A stretch of DNA of 64,000 nt from a phage, in sequence record PZ452591.1. The stretch is one strand, 5' to 3'. A program made the position numbers and the translations under genes. Positions 10,051 to 21,013 of this stretch are shown piece after piece. The notes beneath the pieces were generated by a model that worked only from the letters and a program-made list of their open reading frames with translations, was not told where the DNA came from and did not search any database. The number at the start of each line of letters is the position of its first letter. Within the stretch, counting starts at the first letter, position 1.

Positions 10051-11864
10051 TGGTGTTTAACCCTATGCATGATTTCTTTATTTTTACCGAGATTAAATCC
10101 GCGTTCGTTCGGATTTCCCAAATAACCACATGTTCTTCTTATTGTGTTCATCTTTTTAGGATCAGTTTCTCCACAAATAGAACAAACAAATCCGTTTTCA
10201 GTAGGAGTCATTTCATGGGTACTTCCGCATGTAAAACATTTATCTACCGGCATGTTAACACCAAAATAATCTAAATGTTGTGCAGCATAATCCCATACGG
10301 CCTCAAGACCTTTTAAGTTATTTTTCATATCAGGAAGTTCAACATAAGAAATGTGACCACCTGTCGCAATGAAATGATATGGTGCTTCACGAGAAATCTT
10401 TTCAAACGGAGTAATATTTTCTTCTACTGAAACATGGAAACTGTTAGTGTACCAGCCTTTATCTGTAACATCTTTTACGCTTCCATATTTTTCTGTATCG
10501 AGTTTACAGAAGCGATAACAAAGGTTTTCAGCAGGAGTCGAATATAAACTAAAAGCAAATCCGGTTCTTTCAGTCCACTGTTTAAGATGAGCATTCATCT
10601 TAGTTAAAATTTCTTGTCCAATATCACGACCGACAAGAATATTCAATTCGTGAATACCAATGTATCCTAAAGACACTGAACTTCTACCGTTTTTAAATAA
10701 CTCAATTATGTCGTCATCAGGTTTAAGACGAACCCCAAATGCACCTTCTTGGTAAAGAATAGGAGCAACAGTAGCTTTAACTCCTTTTAAGGAACTAATT
10801 CTACACATCAAAGCTTCAAAACATAAATCCATTCGTTCATTGAACAATTCAACAAATTTCTGTTCATTGAACTGTGTTCCAATATAAGAATCTAACGCGA
10901 TGCGAGGAAGATTCAATGTTACAACACCAAGATTATTACGTCCATCAAGAATTTCATTGCCAGTCGAATCTTTCCATACGCCCAAGAAACTACGGCAACC
11001 CATTGGAGAAACAGGAACAGATGAACCAGTGATAGCTTTATTGTTCTTAGCTGAAATAATATCAGGATACATTCTTTTGCTTGCGCACTCTAAAGCAAGC
11101 TGCTTAATATCATAGTTCGGATCGTCTTTATAAAGATTAACACCTTCTTCAACGAACATAACAAGCTTAGGGAAAATAGGAGTTATCCCATCACGACCAA
11201 GACCTTTAATACGATTTTTCAGAATTGCTTTCTGAATCATTCGTTCAGTCCAGTCAGTTCCCGTACCAAATGTAATTGTTACAAAAGGAGTCTGTCCGTT
11301 TGAACTAAAGAGAGTATTTACTTCATATTCATAAGCTTGGAATGCATCGTATACGTCTTTTTCTGTTTTAGATTGAGCATAATTCAACGCATCAGCGATT
11401 TGCCATTTTTCTGCATCCTCAATATGTTTTGCATAGGTGCGTTTAACATAAGGAGAAAGTACTTTATCTACATTCGCAAAAGTCGTTCCGCCGTATTGGT
11501 GAGAAGCAACCTGTGCAGTAATTTGTGCCATAATTGCAGTAGCAACGCCAATTGATTTAGGAGTTTCAATCTGCGCATTACCGAGCTTAAATCCGTTCTC
11601 AAGCATTCCTTTTAAATCTACTAAACAGCAATTAGTAAATGGAAGAGCAGGGGAATAATCAATATCATGGAAATGAATAATTCCGCTTTCATGCGCTTTC
11701 ATAATAAAAGACGGGACCATATTTTTGGCAATGTGTTTAGACACAATACCAGCCATAAGGTCCCGTTGAGTTGGAAAAACACGAGAATCTTTATTAGCAT
11801 TCTCGTTTAAAAGGTCTTTATTAGTTTTATGAATCAATCCTTCAATTTCTTTTTCAATTGTCAT
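10047..11864 (-). CDS. nrdD: anaerobic ribonucleoside-triphosphate reductase NrdD (glycyl radical enzyme), uninterrupted
   Basis: 605 aa continuous ORF; C-terminal Zn-ribbon CFTCGSTHEM..CSICG and glycyl radical region RTCGYLG. Confidence 0.9.
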   Translation of the reverse strand: MTIEKEIEGLIHKTNKDLLNENANKDSRVFPTQRDLMAGIVSKHIAKNMVPSFIMKAHESGIIHFHDIDYSPALPFTNCCLVDLKGMLENGFKLGNAQIETPKSIGVATAIMAQITAQVASHQYGGTTFANVDKVLSPYVKRTYAKHIEDAEKWQIADALNYAQSKTEKDVYDAFQAYEYEVNTLFSSNGQTPFVTITFGTGTDWTERMIQKAILKNRIKGLGRDGITPIFPKLVMFVEEGVNLYKDDPNYDIKQLALECASKRMYPDIISAKNNKAITGSSVPVSPMGCRSFLGVWKDSTGNEILDGRNNLGVVTLNLPRIALDSYIGTQFNEQKFVELFNERMDLCFEALMCRISSLKGVKATVAPILYQEGAFGVRLKPDDDIIELFKNGRSSVSLGYIGIHELNILVGRDIGQEILTKMNAHLKQWTERTGFAFSLYSTPAENLCYRFCKLDTEKYGSVKDVTDKGWYTNSFHVSVEENITPFEKISREAPYHFIATGGHISYVELPDMKNNLKGLEAVWDYAAQHLDYFGVNMPVDKCFTCGSTHEMTPTENGFVCSICGETDPKKMNTIRRTCGYLGNPNERGFNLGKNKEIMHRVKHQ

Positions 11865-12334
11865 TTTAAACTCTTTCTAAGCTGCTTCTTGAATGAAGCT
11901 ATTAATTGTGTTTTGGTGTCAGATTCATTATATTCAAATCCTCTTTGAAGCATCTCGGCCATCATTTCCTCTTTTCCTAAACGAGAAAATTCCTTTGATT
12001 TATCTCCAACAAAGTTAGGGTGAATATTATTTTGGGTGTAATCGGATTTTAAGTAAGTAAGTAAATTTTCTAACCATTCAAGATAATCAACGCCTTGTCC
12101 CTTTAAGCCAGAACGATTAAATTTATGCTTCATTTGACCTTCTGCGGCATTGCATAAATTACAAAGCAATCCACGTACCTTTCCTGCTTTTGGTCCATTT
12201 AATTCATGGTCATGGTCGAGGTGATTAGCTTGAACATCAGGATTTAGTTCTCGTTGGCAAATTAAGCATTTACCGTTTTGTGCATCATAAAATTTTTGTT
12301 TTTCTTCTTTATATAATTTGCCAGTCAATAACAT
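11861..12334 (-). CDS. 49: endonuclease VII (Holliday junction resolvase) gp49
   Basis: 157 aa; matches T4 endo VII including Zn-binding Cys and HLDHDHE motif. Confidence 0.9.
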   Translation of the reverse strand: MLLTGKLYKEEKQKFYDAQNGKCLICQRELNPDVQANHLDHDHELNGPKAGKVRGLLCNLCNAAEGQMKHKFNRSGLKGQGVDYLEWLENLLTYLKSDYTQNNIHPNFVGDKSKEFSRLGKEEMMAEMLQRGFEYNESDTKTQLIASFKKQLRKSLK

Positions 12335-13526: not shown

Positions 13527-13705
13527 TTAGAAATAGACTTTTCGCCGTTAGAATAATAAACTTCGAGTTTAGCACGATTATTTTTAATTTGAATAACCTT
13601 GGCTGTCATTAAAGTTCCATACCCATAGTAAACTGCAACTTCATCACCTACATATACCGCGCTTCCGCGGTAATCATGGATATAATCAGTTCCTTCGAGC
13701 ATCAT
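13490..13705 (-). CDS. hypothetical protein
   Basis: 71 aa ORF, ATGA overlap with nrdC. Confidence 0.45.
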   Translation of the reverse strand: MMLEGTDYIHDYRGSAVYVGDEVAVYYGYGTLMTAKVIQIKNNRAKLEVYYSNGEKSISKWKYGDCMVKLG

Positions 13706-13965
13706 TTAAAGTATTCCCGCAATTGGTCAAATCCACCAATATGACTTCCATCAGGAGCAAATACCTGAGGCATTGTCAAGCCAATTTGAGTATCACGACC
13801 TAGTTTAGTCAGAAGCTCAGCAATTTTCTCATCGTCAAAAACACCTTTTTCCGGCATAATGTTGATAAACTCAAACGGCTGTTTCTTCACGGTCAAAAGA
13901 CGTTTTGCATTATCGCAATACACACATTTATGGATGTTGCTATCATAACCATATACTTTAAACAT
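13702..13965 (-). CDS. nrdC: thioredoxin/glutaredoxin NrdC
   Basis: 87 aa; CVYC active site; matches T4 thioredoxin. Confidence 0.85.
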   Translation of the reverse strand: MFKVYGYDSNIHKCVYCDNAKRLLTVKKQPFEFINIMPEKGVFDDEKIAELLTKLGRDTQIGLTMPQVFAPDGSHIGGFDQLREYFK

Positions 13966-13966
13966 A

Positions 13967-14224
13967 TTATTCCTTAATTCCTAGTACTTGTTTAAAAGTC
14001 TCGTCGTAATCAAGACTTTGGCCCGTTTGTTCTTTATGTTTGTATATAATATCACTTACTTCTGATAGCATATTTTTATATGAACGAGTTAAAGCAGATT
14101 TAAGCACGCTGTATCTATCAGGAAATTTACCGTGTTCATTATAATAAGCTATTGCTAATTCACGGACTGCCTTTTCGGCAGTCTCCATATATTCTTTACG
14201 CTTGGTCATTTTCTTCTCGGTCAA
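13967..14224 (-). CDS. hypothetical protein (nrdC.1 position)
   Basis: 85 aa ORF. Confidence 0.5.
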
Positions 14225-14510
14225 ATCGGTGTTTACAATGGCGACATTTATAACGAAGATTATTAGTCTGCCAATGGACTAATTGCACCTGTTCAGTTCC
14301 ACATTCAGGGCAATTAGGAACGTTTTTAGAAGCACGTTCGCGGCGTTCAACCATGACCATTACAGAATCCCAATTAATAGGGCTGCTATAATCATCACAA
14401 CCATGAATCTTTCCACGCATTTCCAGATCGTCTTCTTCACCAGCCATAATAATTTTAATTAGACTAGAATTACTTGAAGCTGCAATGTCTTCTAATAGAC
14501 GCTTTTTCAT
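14196..14510 (-). CDS. zinc-ribbon protein (nrdC.2 position)
   Basis: 104 aa; CPECG..(x17)..CRHCKHRF four-Cys ribbon. Confidence 0.5.
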
Positions 14511-15436
14511 TTCAATACCTCAATAGCATTACGTAAACCATTTGCTTTTGCATTAAGAGCTTTTAACAATTTGGTGTGTTCTTCAATTTGGGCTTCAACT
14601 TCAATCAAACGAGCATTGAGATATTCACGTTCTTCGCTCAAGTTATCAACCTTTTCTACTTTAGGTTCTTTTACAACTGGCTTATACGTATTAGGGTTCT
14701 TCAGTTTAATTAGAATGCGTGAACTGTATAACATTGAACCATTATCTTCGGTTTCATCATACATTTCTACTACGTCCATGATTTTTAACATCATGCGAAG
14801 TTTATAAGACAACGAACGAATAGTTTTGTTGTGCTTATTAATTTCTCTAGCTGTCATGGTGCCGAGATTACGTGAGTAATAATAAGGAACCTGGATATTA
14901 ATTAATACTGATGAACCACCTGGCTTGTGTGTTACTTCATCAGCAATAACCCAGTCCTTAACATGAACTGTATTTGTACGGTCATCGCCCATGGTAAACA
15001 GTTTGCGAGCATGCTTAAAAAGCATATTCACTTGAGTATTGAATTGACAAGCAAATTTATCAGCAAATTTAGTTTCAGGAATGGTAGATAACCAATCAGC
15101 CAAATGGGTCTTTTTAACATCGTTAATAATAGTAAATTCAACCAAATCGGTTATAGATGTCGCAGATTTAATGAAGCTCGGCTTCATAAAGTTTTTAATG
15201 TTATCGCGAGCTACAGTAGAAGATAACATACGAGAACGTTTAAACCATTCAAGCAAATTGCCTAACGAATGAGAATAAGCGTTTTGAGTATCTTTACAGA
15301 TATGATTTTCCTGGCCAACATATTGAAGGAAATCACGAAGAATATTATTGATTACTGCTCTGTGCCCGATCTGATAATTACGGTGTTTAGTAATAAGACT
15401 GTCAAAATAATCAATATAATGTTTACGAGTTTTCAT
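14507..15436 (-). CDS. hypothetical protein with C-terminal coiled coil (nrdC.3 position)
   Basis: 309 aa; heptad-like C-terminus [42 protein letters not shown]. Confidence 0.55.
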   Translation of the reverse strand: MKTRKHYIDYFDSLITKHRNYQIGHRAVINNILRDFLQYVGQENHICKDTQNAYSHSLGNLLEWFKRSRMLSSTVARDNIKNFMKPSFIKSATSITDLVEFTIINDVKKTHLADWLSTIPETKFADKFACQFNTQVNMLFKHARKLFTMGDDRTNTVHVKDWVIADEVTHKPGGSSVLINIQVPYYYSRNLGTMTAREINKHNKTIRSLSYKLRMMLKIMDVVEMYDETEDNGSMLYSSRILIKLKNPNTYKPVVKEPKVEKVDNLSEEREYLNARLIEVEAQIEEHTKLLKALNAKANGLRNAIEVLK

Positions 15437-15488
15437 GTTCTTCTCACTTGGTTAATGGTTTATACTCCGAGCCATCCTTGGCTTTAAA

Positions 15489-16520
15489 TTACTTAATTAA
15501 CTGTAAAGCTTGTTCAAGACGATCCAGGCGATTAACAGATTCTTCCCAAATCCTTTTAGCCTGCTCATATTCTTTCTGTGCTTTATTAGAAATTTCTAGA
15601 ACTTCTTTATAAGCTTTTTCTAGTGCAATAACTTCTGGACGAATTTCTATCGGTTCAGGTGAATCGTCAAGACATTCCATTAGTTCCTCAAGGGTAGTTT
15701 CTTCTTTAGGAGTATTCACAATTTCATCACATTTTTGTTGGTAAATTTCTTTATCAGTCGGTGAGTACGCACACTTTACTTCACGAAGACTAACTACAAT
15801 TTTATATCCTTCCCAACCGCATATATTCTTAAAAGGATAAGTATGAATATTTTCTACTGTTTCCATACAAAGTAATGCAGTCTCTAACTGACGAGTTATA
15901 TCACTAGCAATTGAGAAAAATTTATTAATGTTCTTTTGATTAGCTTCTGGTGTAAAAAATTCATAATTCACAAAAATAGCTACTTTATTTTTATCAAGTT
16001 CATATTCTTTTATGATAATCATATCAGAAGCCAAAGGATGAATTTGACGATAATCGCCATAGCATAATTTAGAAGCTGATTTCAAAATTTGCTTCTTGAA
16101 AAGTCTAAAATTACTAACCCAACGACGAGTAAAAATATTCTCAGGGTCTTCTTTAATATTAAGATGATAAGAATTAACATCACCGAACCAATTGTATCCT
16201 ACTACATCTTTAGTTCGTTTAATTTCTTTCCCAAATTTACTAAGAATATCTTGATTAACTAAATATGAAAGAAGACGAGACCCTTTAAAGGTTTCCTTAA
16301 TATCATCTTTATCTGCACGACTAGAAATTTTATGAACTTCATGAATAAATTTGCTGGAAGAAACAATACTTGCATCAGTATTATTGAGCCATTGATTGAT
16401 AATGGAAATAACGCTATTCTGACTAGACATAGGTTTAACTTTATCATCAATAACGCTATTGAATGATTTGATATATTCGTTACGAGTCATATTAATCTCC
16501 TCAGTAGAAAGTAAGAACAT
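15489..16520 (-). CDS. hypothetical protein with C-terminal coiled coil (nrdC.4 position); true start probably Met11 at 16488-16490
   Basis: track ORF start overlaps the promoter -10; GAGGAG RBS precedes internal ATG; paralogous segment with next gene. Confidence 0.55.
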   Translation of the reverse strand: MFLLSTEEINMTRNEYIKSFNSVIDDKVKPMSSQNSVISIINQWLNNTDASIVSSSKFIHEVHKISSRADKDDIKETFKGSRLLSYLVNQDILSKFGKEIKRTKDVVGYNWFGDVNSYHLNIKEDPENIFTRRWVSNFRLFKKQILKSASKLCYGDYRQIHPLASDMIIIKEYELDKNKVAIFVNYEFFTPEANQKNINKFFSIASDITRQLETALLCMETVENIHTYPFKNICGWEGYKIVVSLREVKCAYSPTDKEIYQQKCDEIVNTPKEETTLEELMECLDDSPEPIEIRPEVIALEKAYKEVLEISNKAQKEYEQAKRIWEESVNRLDRLEQALQLIK

Positions 16521-16550
16521 TATACCACATCCTTGTGGCGAAGTAAACTA
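16517..16550 (-). promoter_or_regulatory. T4-type early promoter
   Basis: GTTTAC (16543-16548), 18-nt spacer, TGGTATAAT (-10 at 16519-16524). Confidence 0.6.
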
Positions 16551-17567
16551 GTTTAGTGCATTTAGTGCATTATTCAGTTTAGAACGTTGCTTTGCCAGAT
16601 TTTGAACCCTTGACTGAGCTTGTTCTAACACCTTTTCAGCTTCTAGCACTTCATTGGTCGCTTTAACGAGTTCATCATCTACTGCCTTGATAGACTTCTC
16701 AATCGCATCCGCGTGCCATTTTTCAACGGGTTTAAGACTCGGATTTTCAACAGGAAGAAAATTCACTTTATTGAATTTCCATGCATCTTTATTACCTGAA
16801 CTATACATCCAAAATTTAGGATCGTTTGATGAGTAATTAGATAAATTTAAGTTATCTTGCACTTCTTGCTTTTTCTCTTGCGGGACTTCGTCCTTTCTCA
16901 AAAAATCGTATTTAAATGAAACGACCATATCAAGTTCATATGTTGTTGTATGTTCCCAATTTCGCTCAAAACGAGGTAAAATCTTAGAATGAACAGCGGC
17001 AACAACATCCATATACTTAAATGCTTCTGTCAACTGCGATTTAAGGCATTCACAAATTGAAAGAGAATTTTTTGTATTAGGTTTAAAGCTAATTCGCGCA
17101 GTTCTATTATTTTCTTTTAATGGTCTTACTTCCATCTGAAGAGTATAACCATCAAATTTCAGGTTCTTTAAGTTAATGTCAGAACCTTTTAATCGACTAG
17201 CCGTCGACAAAATTTGCTTTAATTGTTTACGGAATAGAGCAATAAATCTCCATTCAATACGATAATGATTTGGATTGAAAAATCCAGATGATAAATCGAC
17301 CTTACTCTGACCAACACCTTGAACAAATAGAGGATTTTTATAATCAATAGTTTTACAGAAATCGGTGAGCTGCTCACGAGCAGTCATTTGTGTAATATAC
17401 CCCGCTTTACTAAAATGACGTAATAATTCACTGCTATTTAGATATTTAAAGTGAATAGCACGATTAACTTTATCAGGGTCTAAATTATTTTCACACAAAA
17501 ATGTCATAACATTACGAGTATCGCTGCCAGTACGAACCATATCTTCAATTTGAGAACGAGTTTTCAT
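16548..17567 (-). CDS. hypothetical protein with C-terminal coiled coil (nrdC.5 position)
   Basis: 339 aa; shares FRKQLKQILSTASRL-like segment with the 15489..16520 protein. Confidence 0.55.
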   Translation of the reverse strand: MKTRSQIEDMVRTGSDTRNVMTFLCENNLDPDKVNRAIHFKYLNSSELLRHFSKAGYITQMTAREQLTDFCKTIDYKNPLFVQGVGQSKVDLSSGFFNPNHYRIEWRFIALFRKQLKQILSTASRLKGSDINLKNLKFDGYTLQMEVRPLKENNRTARISFKPNTKNSLSICECLKSQLTEAFKYMDVVAAVHSKILPRFERNWEHTTTYELDMVVSFKYDFLRKDEVPQEKKQEVQDNLNLSNYSSNDPKFWMYSSGNKDAWKFNKVNFLPVENPSLKPVEKWHADAIEKSIKAVDDELVKATNEVLEAEKVLEQAQSRVQNLAKQRSKLNNALNALN

Positions 17568-17575
17568 GGTGTTCC

Positions 17576-18487
17576 TTAAGATTTAAGTAAATCAACAATT
17601 TTAATTAACTTTTCACGCTCAGATTTAGCTTTACTACTCAGTCCAGATAGTCTGAAAATTTCATCATCATATTGTTGAATAGAAATATTCAGCTCTTCAA
17701 TCTGTTTATTAAAATAATCAATTTGTTCAGAATGTTTTTCGTTACTACGAAATGGTACAGGTTTTGTAGGCAATTTAGTTGAATTGGATTCATCCGGGCG
17801 ATAAATTAAAATACAACTTGAACCAATCGGACATTTAGCACCAGATGAATATTCTAACGTTCCAGCTTCTTTTAAAACTTCAAAAGCTAAACAGAGATGA
17901 TGCCCCATATTAACATAATCAGTAGAGCGAGCTCTGACGTAATAATCATCTCCACGAGTGCTAAATTTAAAGCATTTAAGGTCTTCTGTATTATTAGTTT
18001 TAAAAATCATTTGTTTATCTAGACCTTTAGCCAATCGAGCGCCTAATGCTAATAATCGTCGTTGATTTTCCCACAAATCCGCAATCATTTGGTCAAATGA
18101 TAATTTCGGCATTAGTCGACCATAAAGGTCATATCCTTTATTATAATTGCGAAGGATTTCACTCGCGTTAATACGAGACAATGCTCCAATTTTATTAAGG
18201 GCTTTCATAATACGATTAGATAAACTCATTCCAGATCCGTTTGTTCGCTGCAAATGTTTATCTAATCCAAACCCAATATCAACTTTAAATTTATCTAAAA
18301 TTTCAGCATGAACATCTCTGTCAATAACATTCAAATCCAAAGTTGTGTTAAATCTATGAAAAAATTTATCTGGCTCTCCACGACGAAATACAGTCCATTC
18401 ATTCATCATTTTTTTATTAACTAAAGATTTAATTACTGCATTGACATTATTAATTACGACTGACATATTTTCCTCACTCAATTTCAA
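17576..18487 (-). CDS. hypothetical protein with C-terminal coiled coil (nrdC.6 position)
   Basis: 303 aa ORF; coiled-coil C-terminus. Confidence 0.55.
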   Translation of the reverse strand: MKLSEENMSVVINNVNAVIKSLVNKKMMNEWTVFRRGEPDKFFHRFNTTLDLNVIDRDVHAEILDKFKVDIGFGLDKHLQRTNGSGMSLSNRIMKALNKIGALSRINASEILRNYNKGYDLYGRLMPKLSFDQMIADLWENQRRLLALGARLAKGLDKQMIFKTNNTEDLKCFKFSTRGDDYYVRARSTDYVNMGHHLCLAFEVLKEAGTLEYSSGAKCPIGSSCILIYRPDESNSTKLPTKPVPFRSNEKHSEQIDYFNKQIEELNISIQQYDDEIFRLSGLSSKAKSEREKLIKIVDLLKS

Positions 18488-18881: not shown

Positions 18882-18936
18882 AATAATCTCAATTAAAAGG
18901 GCTTAGAACCATTATACCATCCTTGATATAAAGCGG

Positions 18937-19524
18937 TTATGCGAGTACCGTCTTTAACCGTTCTTCAAACTTCCGAAGAGTATTTTGGCGTTCAGCTCTT
19001 TGCTTTTTGTAAGTTTCAATACGCTCTGAAATGAGAGTGTATCGTTCATTTACTGATTCTTTCATAAAATCAGGAATTTCACGAGAAGCTTTAATCTCGT
19101 CAAATTTATCAATAACAGCTTGCTCTTCAGCAATTAAGTTATCATACATTAAAATATCTTTCTTGATGAACTCAATATCTTCTTGAGTTACGCGAGATAA
19201 TTTAGATGCTTTATCCTTTTTGTACTGTTCGTTAGTATCACGAGACCAGTGTAATGTACGATTTTTATTCGTATTTTTGTAAATTTCTACAATACCGATC
19301 TCATCAATAATAACGATCCAATTCCAACGGGATTTGTAAATTTGTCCTCCATCAACAGTGATTTCACCTCCGATTGAGATGTCATTAAAGAACTTGCTTT
19401 GTGCTTCAGATTTAAATTTACCATCGTTGTAATTTACCAGGTTGAAAATATCTTTAGCGTTCATTTTGTGTTCCTCCGTAGTTGATAGTTGTATAGTACC
19501 ACAGAGGAACAGTCTTGTAAACAA
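18937..19524 (-). CDS. hypothetical protein; true start probably MNAKDIF at 19462-19464
   Basis: track N-terminus overlaps promoter; GGAGG RBS before internal ATG. Confidence 0.5.
   Translation of the reverse strand: MFTRLFLCGTIQLSTTEEHKMNAKDIFNLVNYNDGKFKSEAQSKFFNDISIGGEITVDGGQIYKSRWNWIVIIDEIGIVEIYKNTNKNRTLHWSRDTNEQYKKDKASKLSRVTQEDIEFIKKDILMYDNLIAEEQAVIDKFDEIKASREIPDFMKESVNERYTLISERIETYKKQRAERQNTLRKFEERLKTVLA
19484..19501. repeat. conserved 18-mer GATAGTTGTATAGTACCA, copy 1 of 4 (also 20923-20940, 24512-24529, 36490-36507)
   Basis: exact 18-nt identity at four early-promoter -10 regions. Confidence 0.8.
19491..19524 (-). promoter_or_regulatory. T4-type early promoter carrying conserved 18-mer
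   Basis: GTTTAC (19517-19522), 18-nt spacer, TGGTACTAT (-10 at 19493-19498). Confidence 0.6.
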
Positions 19525-20963: not shown

Positions 20964-20993
20964 TTTTGTGAAAAAAAAAATTTAAAATAAAAA

Positions 20994-21011
20994 GGGAGCC
21001 CGAAGGCTCCC
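20994..21011 (-). terminator. rho-independent terminator downstream of nrdC.11-like gene
   Basis: GGGAGCC-UUCG-GGCUCCC hairpin followed by U-rich run on the minus strand. Confidence 0.65.
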
Positions 21012-21013
21012 TA

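Follow-up and report, generated by a model that had tools for sequence, protein, structure and literature searches.

A putative tandem family at nrdC.3 to nrdC.6 of a T4-like phage includes the ortholog of the anti-Dsr1 protein NrdC.5

Whether adjacent phage genes of similar size and similar C-terminal build belong to one family, and what such genes do for the phage, is the question raised by nrdC.3, nrdC.4, nrdC.5, and nrdC.6 at positions 14507-18487 of the phage record PZ452591.1, analyzed here over a stretch of 64,000 nucleotides (nt; hereafter the window). The region is that of a T4-like phage (Tequatrovirus type): one side of the block is flanked by the genes of endonuclease VII (gp49, 11861-12334) and of the glutaredoxin NrdC (13702-13965), the latter 100% identical to T4 NrdC, and among phage records none is identical, the top DNA match to 14507-18487 reaching 96.8%. 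The gene names are taken from the annotated relatives AR1 and RB51. That the four are T4 open reading frames (ORFs), one of them with a published role, is already known; what the present work adds is a case for uniting four database families in one scaffold family, of which one member is a proven anti-defence gene, the databases holding nrdC.5 and nrdC.6 in families separate from nrdC.3/nrdC.4. The reading that we favor, with moderate confidence, is that nrdC.3 to nrdC.6 are diverged paralogs arrayed in tandem and encode early, non-essential counter-defence (host-range) proteins built on a single scaffold.

A first reading of the same DNA (the original prediction) had described four consecutive ORFs as a paralog family of unknown function, with C-terminal coiled coils and early promoters of its own. 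The ORFs are found exactly where it had placed them, all on the minus strand, as mechanical ORFs at 14507-15436 (309 amino acids, aa), 15489-16520 (343 aa), 16548-17567 (339 aa), and 17576-18487 (303 aa), from which we derive the following genes:

14507..15436, minus strand: nrdC.3 homolog, 309 aa; PHROG 1435; almost certainly a paralog of nrdC.4; allele type only 61% identical to T4 nrdC.3.
15489..16490, minus strand: nrdC.4 homolog; probable true coding sequence of 333 aa, the mechanical ORF reaching 16520; PHROG 1435, precomputed Pfam tag PF26897.
16548..17567, minus strand: nrdC.5 homolog, 339 aa; Pfam DUF7235, PHROG 2351; 92.6% identical to T4 NrdC.5 (anti-Dsr1).
17576..18466, minus strand: nrdC.6 homolog; probable true coding sequence of 296 aa, the mechanical ORF extending to 18487 with a TTG start; PHROG 2257, precomputed Pfam tag PF26899.

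For nrdC.4, the start at 16490 rather than the ORF start at 16520 is the most likely one, because a promoter-like GTTTAC-N17-TGGTATAAT sequence overlaps the first ATG and a GAGGAG precedes the second, and because T4 nrdC.4 is 333 aa long; for nrdC.6, the most likely start is the ATG at 18466, 7 nt past the nrdC.7 stop, which gives the T4 length of 296 aa. Gene order is the same as in the T4 record, to which identity is 61% for nrdC.3, 92% for nrdC.4, 92.6% for nrdC.5, and 97% for nrdC.6.

Comparison of single sequences cannot decide whether the four are paralogs, because all-against-all BLASTP is significant for nrdC.3 and nrdC.4 only (23% identity over 270 residues). These two match the same family, phrog_1435, over its full length (E 1.1e-116 for nrdC.3 and 8.8e-167 for nrdC.4), a family also matched by 34/34 nrdC.4 relatives. 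Their family profiles align with an hhalign probability of 97.4% (E 9e-12), or 97.6% with the coil cut off, and the score without the coil stands at z=16.9 against block-shuffled profiles. An exhaustive hidden Markov model search with the nrdC.4 profile recovered a nrdC.3-type protein at 2e-6; only 7 matches were returned from 1.84 billion representatives, reaching neither nrdC.5 nor nrdC.6, which indicates that the nrdC.4 family is narrow and fast-diverging. We regard nrdC.3 and nrdC.4 as paralogs with near certainty.

As for nrdC.5, it matches the Pfam family DUF7235 (PF23882) along its whole length (residues 1-339 against profile positions 1-307; 412 bits where the gathering score is 30, E 2e-123), a model that nrdC.3, nrdC.4, and nrdC.6 do not match. 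Profile comparison nevertheless connects it to nrdC.4, with an hhalign E of 1.6e-5 over 232 collinear columns (81-336 vs 55-325) and, once the coil is removed, a P of 1.3e-4 and a z of 7.0 reached by 0/80 shuffles. The best-conserved stretch of this alignment is the internal segment FRLFKKQILKSASKL / FRKQLKQILSTASRL (nrdC.4 / nrdC.5) to which the original prediction had drawn attention; the match is thus real, although not significant by BLASTP alone (E 2). For the pair nrdC.3 and nrdC.5 without the coil, block shuffles gave no significant profile similarity. On the whole, nrdC.5 probably belongs to the paralog family as a distant nrdC.4 relative. Similarity outside the coiled coil, the lack of which would have spoken against any family, persists for both nrdC.3-nrdC.4 and nrdC.4-nrdC.5, so that the proposed family is supported for nrdC.3 and nrdC.4, probable for nrdC.5, and borderline by sequence for nrdC.6 (z=2.9 with nrdC.4).

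The coiled coils announced for all four ORFs are likewise borne out. In every tail, hydrophobic residues recur strongly at the a/d heptad positions over a stretch of 28 residues, at a score reached by 0-2/300 same-tail shuffles, and the AlphaFold2 models used here, those of nrdC.4 (predicted local distance difference test, pLDDT, 83.7) and nrdC.6 (pLDDT 75.3), end in long helices (H295-342 in nrdC.4; H253-279 and H285-302 in nrdC.6). The coil is moreover the best-conserved region inside each of the four families, which argues that it is under constraint and not mere low complexity. The helices are located as follows:

14510..14641, minus strand: C-terminal heptad helix of nrdC.3 (aa 266-309); 0/300 shuffles; 82% conserved between two alleles.
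15492..15638, minus strand: C-terminal heptad helix of nrdC.4 (aa 295-343 in ORF numbering); from shuffle test, model, and conservation.
16551..16718, minus strand: C-terminal heptad helix of nrdC.5 (aa 284-339); from shuffle test and conservation.
17579..17731, minus strand: C-terminal heptad helices of nrdC.6 (aa 253-303 in ORF numbering); from shuffle test, model, and conservation.

A heptad tail is not specific to these proteins, as the neighboring nrdC.8 also has one (1/300 shuffles). Considered as a fifth member, nrdC.8 was rejected because its profile resembles none of the others (P 0.04 at best, over 14 columns); taken as a negative control, it indicates that a coil alone does not create hhalign signals.

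An unsupervised MAFFT alignment of the four families brings three motifs into register ahead of the coil, in one and the same order, and then the coil's terminal L..A[LI]..L[KN]; in 25 columns the residue class is conserved in all four families. The first motif reads SRMLSSTVARDNIKNFMK / SRLLSYLVNQDILSKFGK / AGYITQMTAREQLTDFCK / IGALSRINASEILRNYNK (pattern LS...A.[DE].[IL]..[FY].K), the second is an amphipathic helix followed by a G-D turn, and the third is a helix with an M[DE]VV-like (M[DE]xV-like) motif. The core motif was located at:

16047..16109, minus strand: core motif in nrdC.4 (aa 138-158, FRLFKKQILKSASKLCYGDYR), an amphipathic helix and then a G-D turn.
17178..17240, minus strand: core motif in nrdC.5 (aa 110-130, LFRKQLKQILSTASRLKGSD).

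Collinear counterparts of the nrdC.4 motif lie at aa ~137-155 in nrdC.3, 110-130 in nrdC.5, and 140-158 in nrdC.6. A merged four-family profile finds a single syntenic homolog by nrdC in Klebsiella phage Roth34 (95.5%, E 1.5e-8) and a homolog in Citrobacter phage CF1 (82.6%, E 1e-5), both of which it detects better than any one family does; this result, like the lack of signal from nrdC.8, is in keeping with a coherent superfamily. The Roth34 homolog was also tried as a bridging family and set aside, its relatives being nearly all >94% identical and yielding no useful profile. At least three of the four proteins appear to share a common architecture. The nrdC.4 model begins with a helical domain, continues with an alpha/beta core and a linker, and closes with a C-terminal helix of 48 residues. 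In the scaffold that we propose, a variable helical domain at the N-terminus would be followed in each protein by a central alpha/beta domain carrying the three collinear motifs, then by a poorly ordered linker and a conserved C-terminal heptad helix of ~45 residues, which most likely drives oligomerization.

The membership of nrdC.6 calls for a separate discussion. Its assignment to PHROG 2257 is clear (E 3.9e-150, residues 8-303; 45/45 relatives match), and comparison of its profile with those of the other three is not significant (P 0.005-0.27). Without the coil, block shuffles give a borderline z=2.9 with nrdC.4 (reached by 1/80 shuffles) and nothing significant with nrdC.3 and nrdC.5 (z=1.0 and -0.2 across the two), and adding predicted secondary structure raises the hhalign probability of nrdC.4 vs nrdC.6 from 0.7% to 5.8% only, still below significance. 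Together with the heptad tail of the unrelated nrdC.8, which indicates that such tails recur in the region, these results could mean that only nrdC.3, nrdC.4, and nrdC.5 are related, and that nrdC.6 is an unrelated early protein whose resemblance is convergent or generic (size, helical N-terminus, coil). We consider this unlikely, though far from negligible, as several observations of another kind go against it. The predicted core of nrdC.4 (H129-140, H142-152, H155-158, E, E, H195-218, E, E) and that of nrdC.6 (H131-140, H142-152, H155-158, E, E, H194-207, E, E) follow the same order of elements, H-H-h-E-E-H-E-E and then long C-terminal helices, with the H-H-h block at nearly identical residue numbers. 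In Foldseek searches of BFVD, the two models share five targets at probability 1.00 (E 1e-4 to 1e-7), with unrelated matches clearly apart; these targets are uncharacterized proteins of 300-370 aa from distant T4-like phages (Enterobacter IME523, Pectobacterium PM2, Acinetobacter fHyAci03, Acj61, and Yersinia fHe-Yen9-01). A third family, phrog_26858, is matched near full length by 20/34 nrdC.4 relatives, and 6/45 nrdC.6 relatives match it as well, one of them (P0171) near full length; its positions from about 90 to 330 are covered both by aa 72-333 of nrdC.4 and by aa 45-288 of P0171. The window nrdC.5 matches it too, with its C-terminal part only (aa 266-338). Finally, the motifs are collinear in the unsupervised alignment and the order nrdC.6-nrdC.5-nrdC.4 is kept in 14/14 loci. 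On the basis of predicted structure and shared third-party matches, we find it reasonably likely that nrdC.6 is part of the paralog family, of which it would be the most distant member, one supported by structure.

What the family may do is best approached through Dsr1, a SIR2-domain (sirtuin) protein thought to deplete nicotinamide adenine dinucleotide (NAD+). A T4 deletion clone no longer plates on ECOR17, and deletion of dsr1 from this host restores plating (Srikant, Guegler and Laub 2022, eLife, PMC9391042). Cloned dsr1 protects MG1655, and plasmid-expressed T4 nrdC.5 restores the plating of the deletion mutant on MG1655 with dsr1 (PMC9391042). The function that the original prediction had called unknown is therefore known for nrdC.5, whose T4 counterpart counteracts Dsr1, and the description stands for nrdC.3, nrdC.4, and nrdC.6, which are uncharacterized: in the literature searched, no study but that one characterizes any of the four genes, DUF7235 goes unmentioned, and two further papers name nrdC.4 or nrdC.5 in passing only. 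The window nrdC.5 is the ortholog of T4 NrdC.5: the two proteins are 92.6% identical over 340 aligned residues, both belong to DUF7235, and both genes lie between nrdC.6 and nrdC.4. The window protein differs by ~25 substitutions and is one residue shorter. Given this close likeness, the window allele is very probably an anti-Dsr1 gene as well. For nrdC.3, nrdC.4, and nrdC.6, a counter-defence role is a tentative proposal, for which the case is at best evenly balanced.

In the mechanism that we propose, NrdC.5 would be made early and bind Dsr1 directly, before late phage proteins trigger it, acting as an oligomeric blocker or decoy of the Dsr1 sensor or else blocking its NADase. Target specificity would come from the variable N-terminal and central parts and avidity from the coiled coil, and nrdC.3, nrdC.4, and nrdC.6 may work likewise against further defence proteins or further variants of Dsr1. 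In this regard, DSAD1, the anti-DSR2 protein of SPbeta-like Bacillus phages, is reported to bind a defence-associated sirtuin and prevent NAD+ depletion, as proposed here; its target, however, is DSR2 rather than Dsr1 and it comes from another phage group, and we take it as an analogy and not as a relative. PDB sequence searches (E up to 1) returned no match for nrdC.3, nrdC.5, or the nrdC.6 profile and designed helical repeats only for the nrdC.4 profile, and since DSAD1 complexes are in the PDB, the four show no sequence similarity to DSAD1. A fold search of the PDB with the nrdC.4 model likewise gave no match at E <0.05, so that neither kind of search turned up a relative of solved structure. 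The dmd-tifA-adfA 'anti-TA island' of T4 is likewise an early, dispensable counter-defence cluster of variable content in an accessory region, limiting host range (PMC9391042); its genes, however, are small and not mutual paralogs, whereas nrdC.3-nrdC.6 would be a tandem paralog expansion.

The distribution of the genes adds an evolutionary dimension to this picture. Across 14 viral contigs, the order nrdC.10-.9-.8-(.7)-.6-.5-.4-(.3)-.2-.1-nrdC is conserved, nrdC.3 and nrdC.7 being found only in the Tequatrovirus-like loci among them. The number of family copies, a check of which had been suggested from the outset, varies from 1 to 4 across T4-like phages: Moonvirus CF1 and Klebsiella phage Roth34 have one detectable copy each, and the Mosigvirus SHSML-52-1, a Shigella phage (L019, 7004-10027), carries nrdC.6-, nrdC.5-, and nrdC.3-type genes without nrdC.4, such that nrdC.3-type and nrdC.4-type genes fill the same slot in different phages. 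Between genera, amino acid identity amounts to 40-51% for nrdC.4, 21-28% for nrdC.5, and 35-51% for nrdC.6, against 67-90% for the flanking gp49, NrdC, nrdC.1, nrdC.8, nrdC.10, and nrdC.11. Within Tequatrovirus, the ratio of nonsynonymous to synonymous substitution rates (dN/dS) is 0.08-0.32 for the four genes vs 0-0.12 for the flanks. The four genes are real and under purifying selection, with a protein clock several-fold faster.

The block has also been rearranged and disrupted. Two nrdC.3 alleles, only 61-62% identical, occur in neighborhoods that are otherwise 92-100% identical (the window, L001, L003, and L025, which is T4), T4 carrying the other type; the two are 93% identical over the first 67 residues, 82% in the coil, and ~50% in the middle, a pattern suggesting, from these alignments, that the central domain has been exchanged. 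In another locus (L007, 9980-11033), nrdC.4 falls into two ORFs (200 and 158 aa), apparently through a frameshift or as a pseudogene. In the database protein P0056, residues ~146-270 of nrdC.5 continue in frame into residues ~138-309 of nrdC.3, the product of a natural deletion that took out nrdC.4 together with the 3' portion of nrdC.5 and the 5' portion of nrdC.3 on either side. The speed of divergence, the changing copy number, and the loss or disruption of copies together make up an arms-race signature.

Some side observations concern the same distribution. In SHSML-52-1, nrdC.3 retains 84% DNA identity to the window and the rest of the block has no DNA-level match; its nrdC.6-type protein has a linker motif LKDLIDELN resembling the nrdC.4 consensus LEDLIDxLN at the equivalent position. 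Two proteins of Acinetobacter phage Acj61 with consecutive accessions, E5E4A1 and E5E4A2, both match the nrdC.4 model in BFVD, which, as far as predicted structures go, suggests independent tandem copies of the scaffold outside enterobacterial phages. In Acinetobacter phage AB-Navy71 (L018), three ORFs of 335-343 aa lie upstream of nrdC, and profiles could not assign them.

Two other accounts of the four genes can be set against this body of evidence. According to the first, the family would consist of early regulators or nucleic-acid-binding proteins (e.g., modulators of host or phage transcription or replication), and the rescue from Dsr1 would be indirect. It could appeal to a weak sub-threshold match of the N-terminal helical region of nrdC.3 (aa 30-86) to the N-terminal SAM-like DNA-binding domain of tyrosine recombinases (E 0.075 in Pfam, 0.001 in NCBIfam) and to the fact that the published rescue does not show binding (PMC9391042). 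The recombinase-domain matches, however, fall far under the curated cut-offs (for aa 34-84, 13.8 bits vs 22.3 in Pfam and 18.4 vs 279 in NCBIfam), and the domain was rejected, as were the Pfam/NCBIfam matches PHL, Phage_int_SAM_1, Med2, CofH, and PgrA, sub-threshold noise beside DUF7235. A PDB fold search with the nrdC.4 model gives nothing at E <0.05, the best being TRAPP Bet3 subunits and lambda gpU at template modeling (TM) scores <0.35, and rapid divergence, variable copy number, and dispensability suit host-range genes better than core regulators. We find this first account improbable. The second account takes the nrdC.x names and the 'thioredoxin' label at face value and assigns the four genes to nucleotide or redox metabolism; they do adjoin nrdC (glutaredoxin) and anaerobic ribonucleotide reductase genes, and many GenBank/UniRef homolog entries do say 'thioredoxin'. 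Yet neither Pfam nor NCBIfam finds a thioredoxin/glutaredoxin domain in any of the four, no CxxC occurs in any of their translations, the nrdC.x names record map position only, and divergence is far above that of the true metabolic neighbors, so that we give this account next to no credence. Many homologs are also labeled 'Mur ligase domain-containing protein', a domain that Pfam and NCBIfam do not find in the four either; both labels look like names that spread from the neighboring nrdC.

Returning to the tandem array of counter-defence paralogs, several points weigh against it. Anti-defence activity has been shown for one member only, and for the T4 allele, not that of the window; the published rescue is equally compatible with an indirect mechanism. 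The case for coiled-coil oligomerization, which we consider most likely, consists of the heptad pattern and its conservation. Because dN/dS is <1 throughout, positive selection is not demonstrated. As for nrdC.6, in addition to the profile comparisons discussed above, the BFVD search joins the nrdC.4 and nrdC.6 models through shared intermediates only and not through matches to each other's families.

A more ambitious version of the same idea starts from the TPR sensor common to Dsr1 and Avs7, which is reported to recognize phage major capsid proteins (2026 preprint, PMC12803255). The four paralogs might form a modular sensor-blocker array, each occupying, through its variable N-terminal and central domains, the sensor of a different immune protein, with the TPR sensors of Dsr1 and Avs7 as candidate targets; the coil would assemble homo- or hetero-oligomers, one ancestral scaffold would have diversified by tandem duplication and central-domain swapping, and the resulting multi-target battery would set the host range of T-even phages. 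Taken jointly, this whole set of propositions is speculative, and we deem it unlikely.

With regard to transcription, the promoter-like sites are:

16519..16547, minus strand: T4-early-type promoter-like site upstream of nrdC.4, TTTACT-N17-TATAAT with TG, preceded by G and hence GTTTAC; a consensus match only.
15459..15488, minus strand: weaker promoter-like site upstream of nrdC.3, TTTAAA-N18-TATAAA; read from sequence.
18911..18919, minus strand: extended -10-like TGGTATAAT upstream of nrdC.7, the sole candidate promoter for the packed nrdC.7-nrdC.6-nrdC.5 run.
19521-19493, minus strand: T4-early-type promoter-like site before nrdC.8; a consensus match only.

The early promoters attributed to the genes are thus matched by promoter-like sequences before nrdC.4 and nrdC.3; for nrdC.6 and nrdC.5 none is possible, because nrdC.7, nrdC.6, and nrdC.5 are separated by just 7-8 nt, which leaves no room for promoters of their own. 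Judging from this spacing, the three genes must be co-transcribed. Promoter-like sites are about as numerous in the region as expected by chance (37 observed, 34.9 expected). The spacer motif AAGGATGG of the nrdC.3 site also occurs in the nrdC.4 and nrdC.7 upstream regions, and a spacer motif CAAGGATG(T)GG stands right before TATAAT/TATAAA upstream of nrdC.7 (18911-18930), nrdC.4 (16519-16535), and nrdC.3 (15459-15480); such a common spacer motif would fit a promoter duplicated along with its gene, or else a conserved T4 early-promoter spacer.

Among the neighbors, nrdC.2 (14196-14510) is a small gene with a zinc-ribbon-like CPECG...CRHC motif and is unusually variable (57-97% identity among Tequatrovirus loci, dN/dS 0.13-0.38), next to an nrdC.1 that is 99-100% identical. 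For nrdC.8 (ORF 18937-19524), the true start is probably 19464 (175 aa, the T4 length), behind a GTTTACA-N17-TACTAT promoter-like site with TG. At 20993-21012, between a 337-aa gene and nrdC.10, lies a hairpin resembling a strong bidirectional terminator, AGGGAGCC-TTCG-GGCTCCCT with a T run after it, the only convincing terminator within the scanned 8 kb.

Beyond correcting the widespread 'thioredoxin' mislabel, these observations bear on how T-even phages may counter the defences of their hosts. The two nrdC.3 alleles, which differ in the middle, and the occupancy of one slot by either nrdC.3-type or nrdC.4-type genes provide natural specificity variants for the study of the NrdC.5-Dsr1 pair. 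A role is known for one of the four genes; if all of them share its scaffold, three widely conserved T-even genes would become specific anti-defence candidates.

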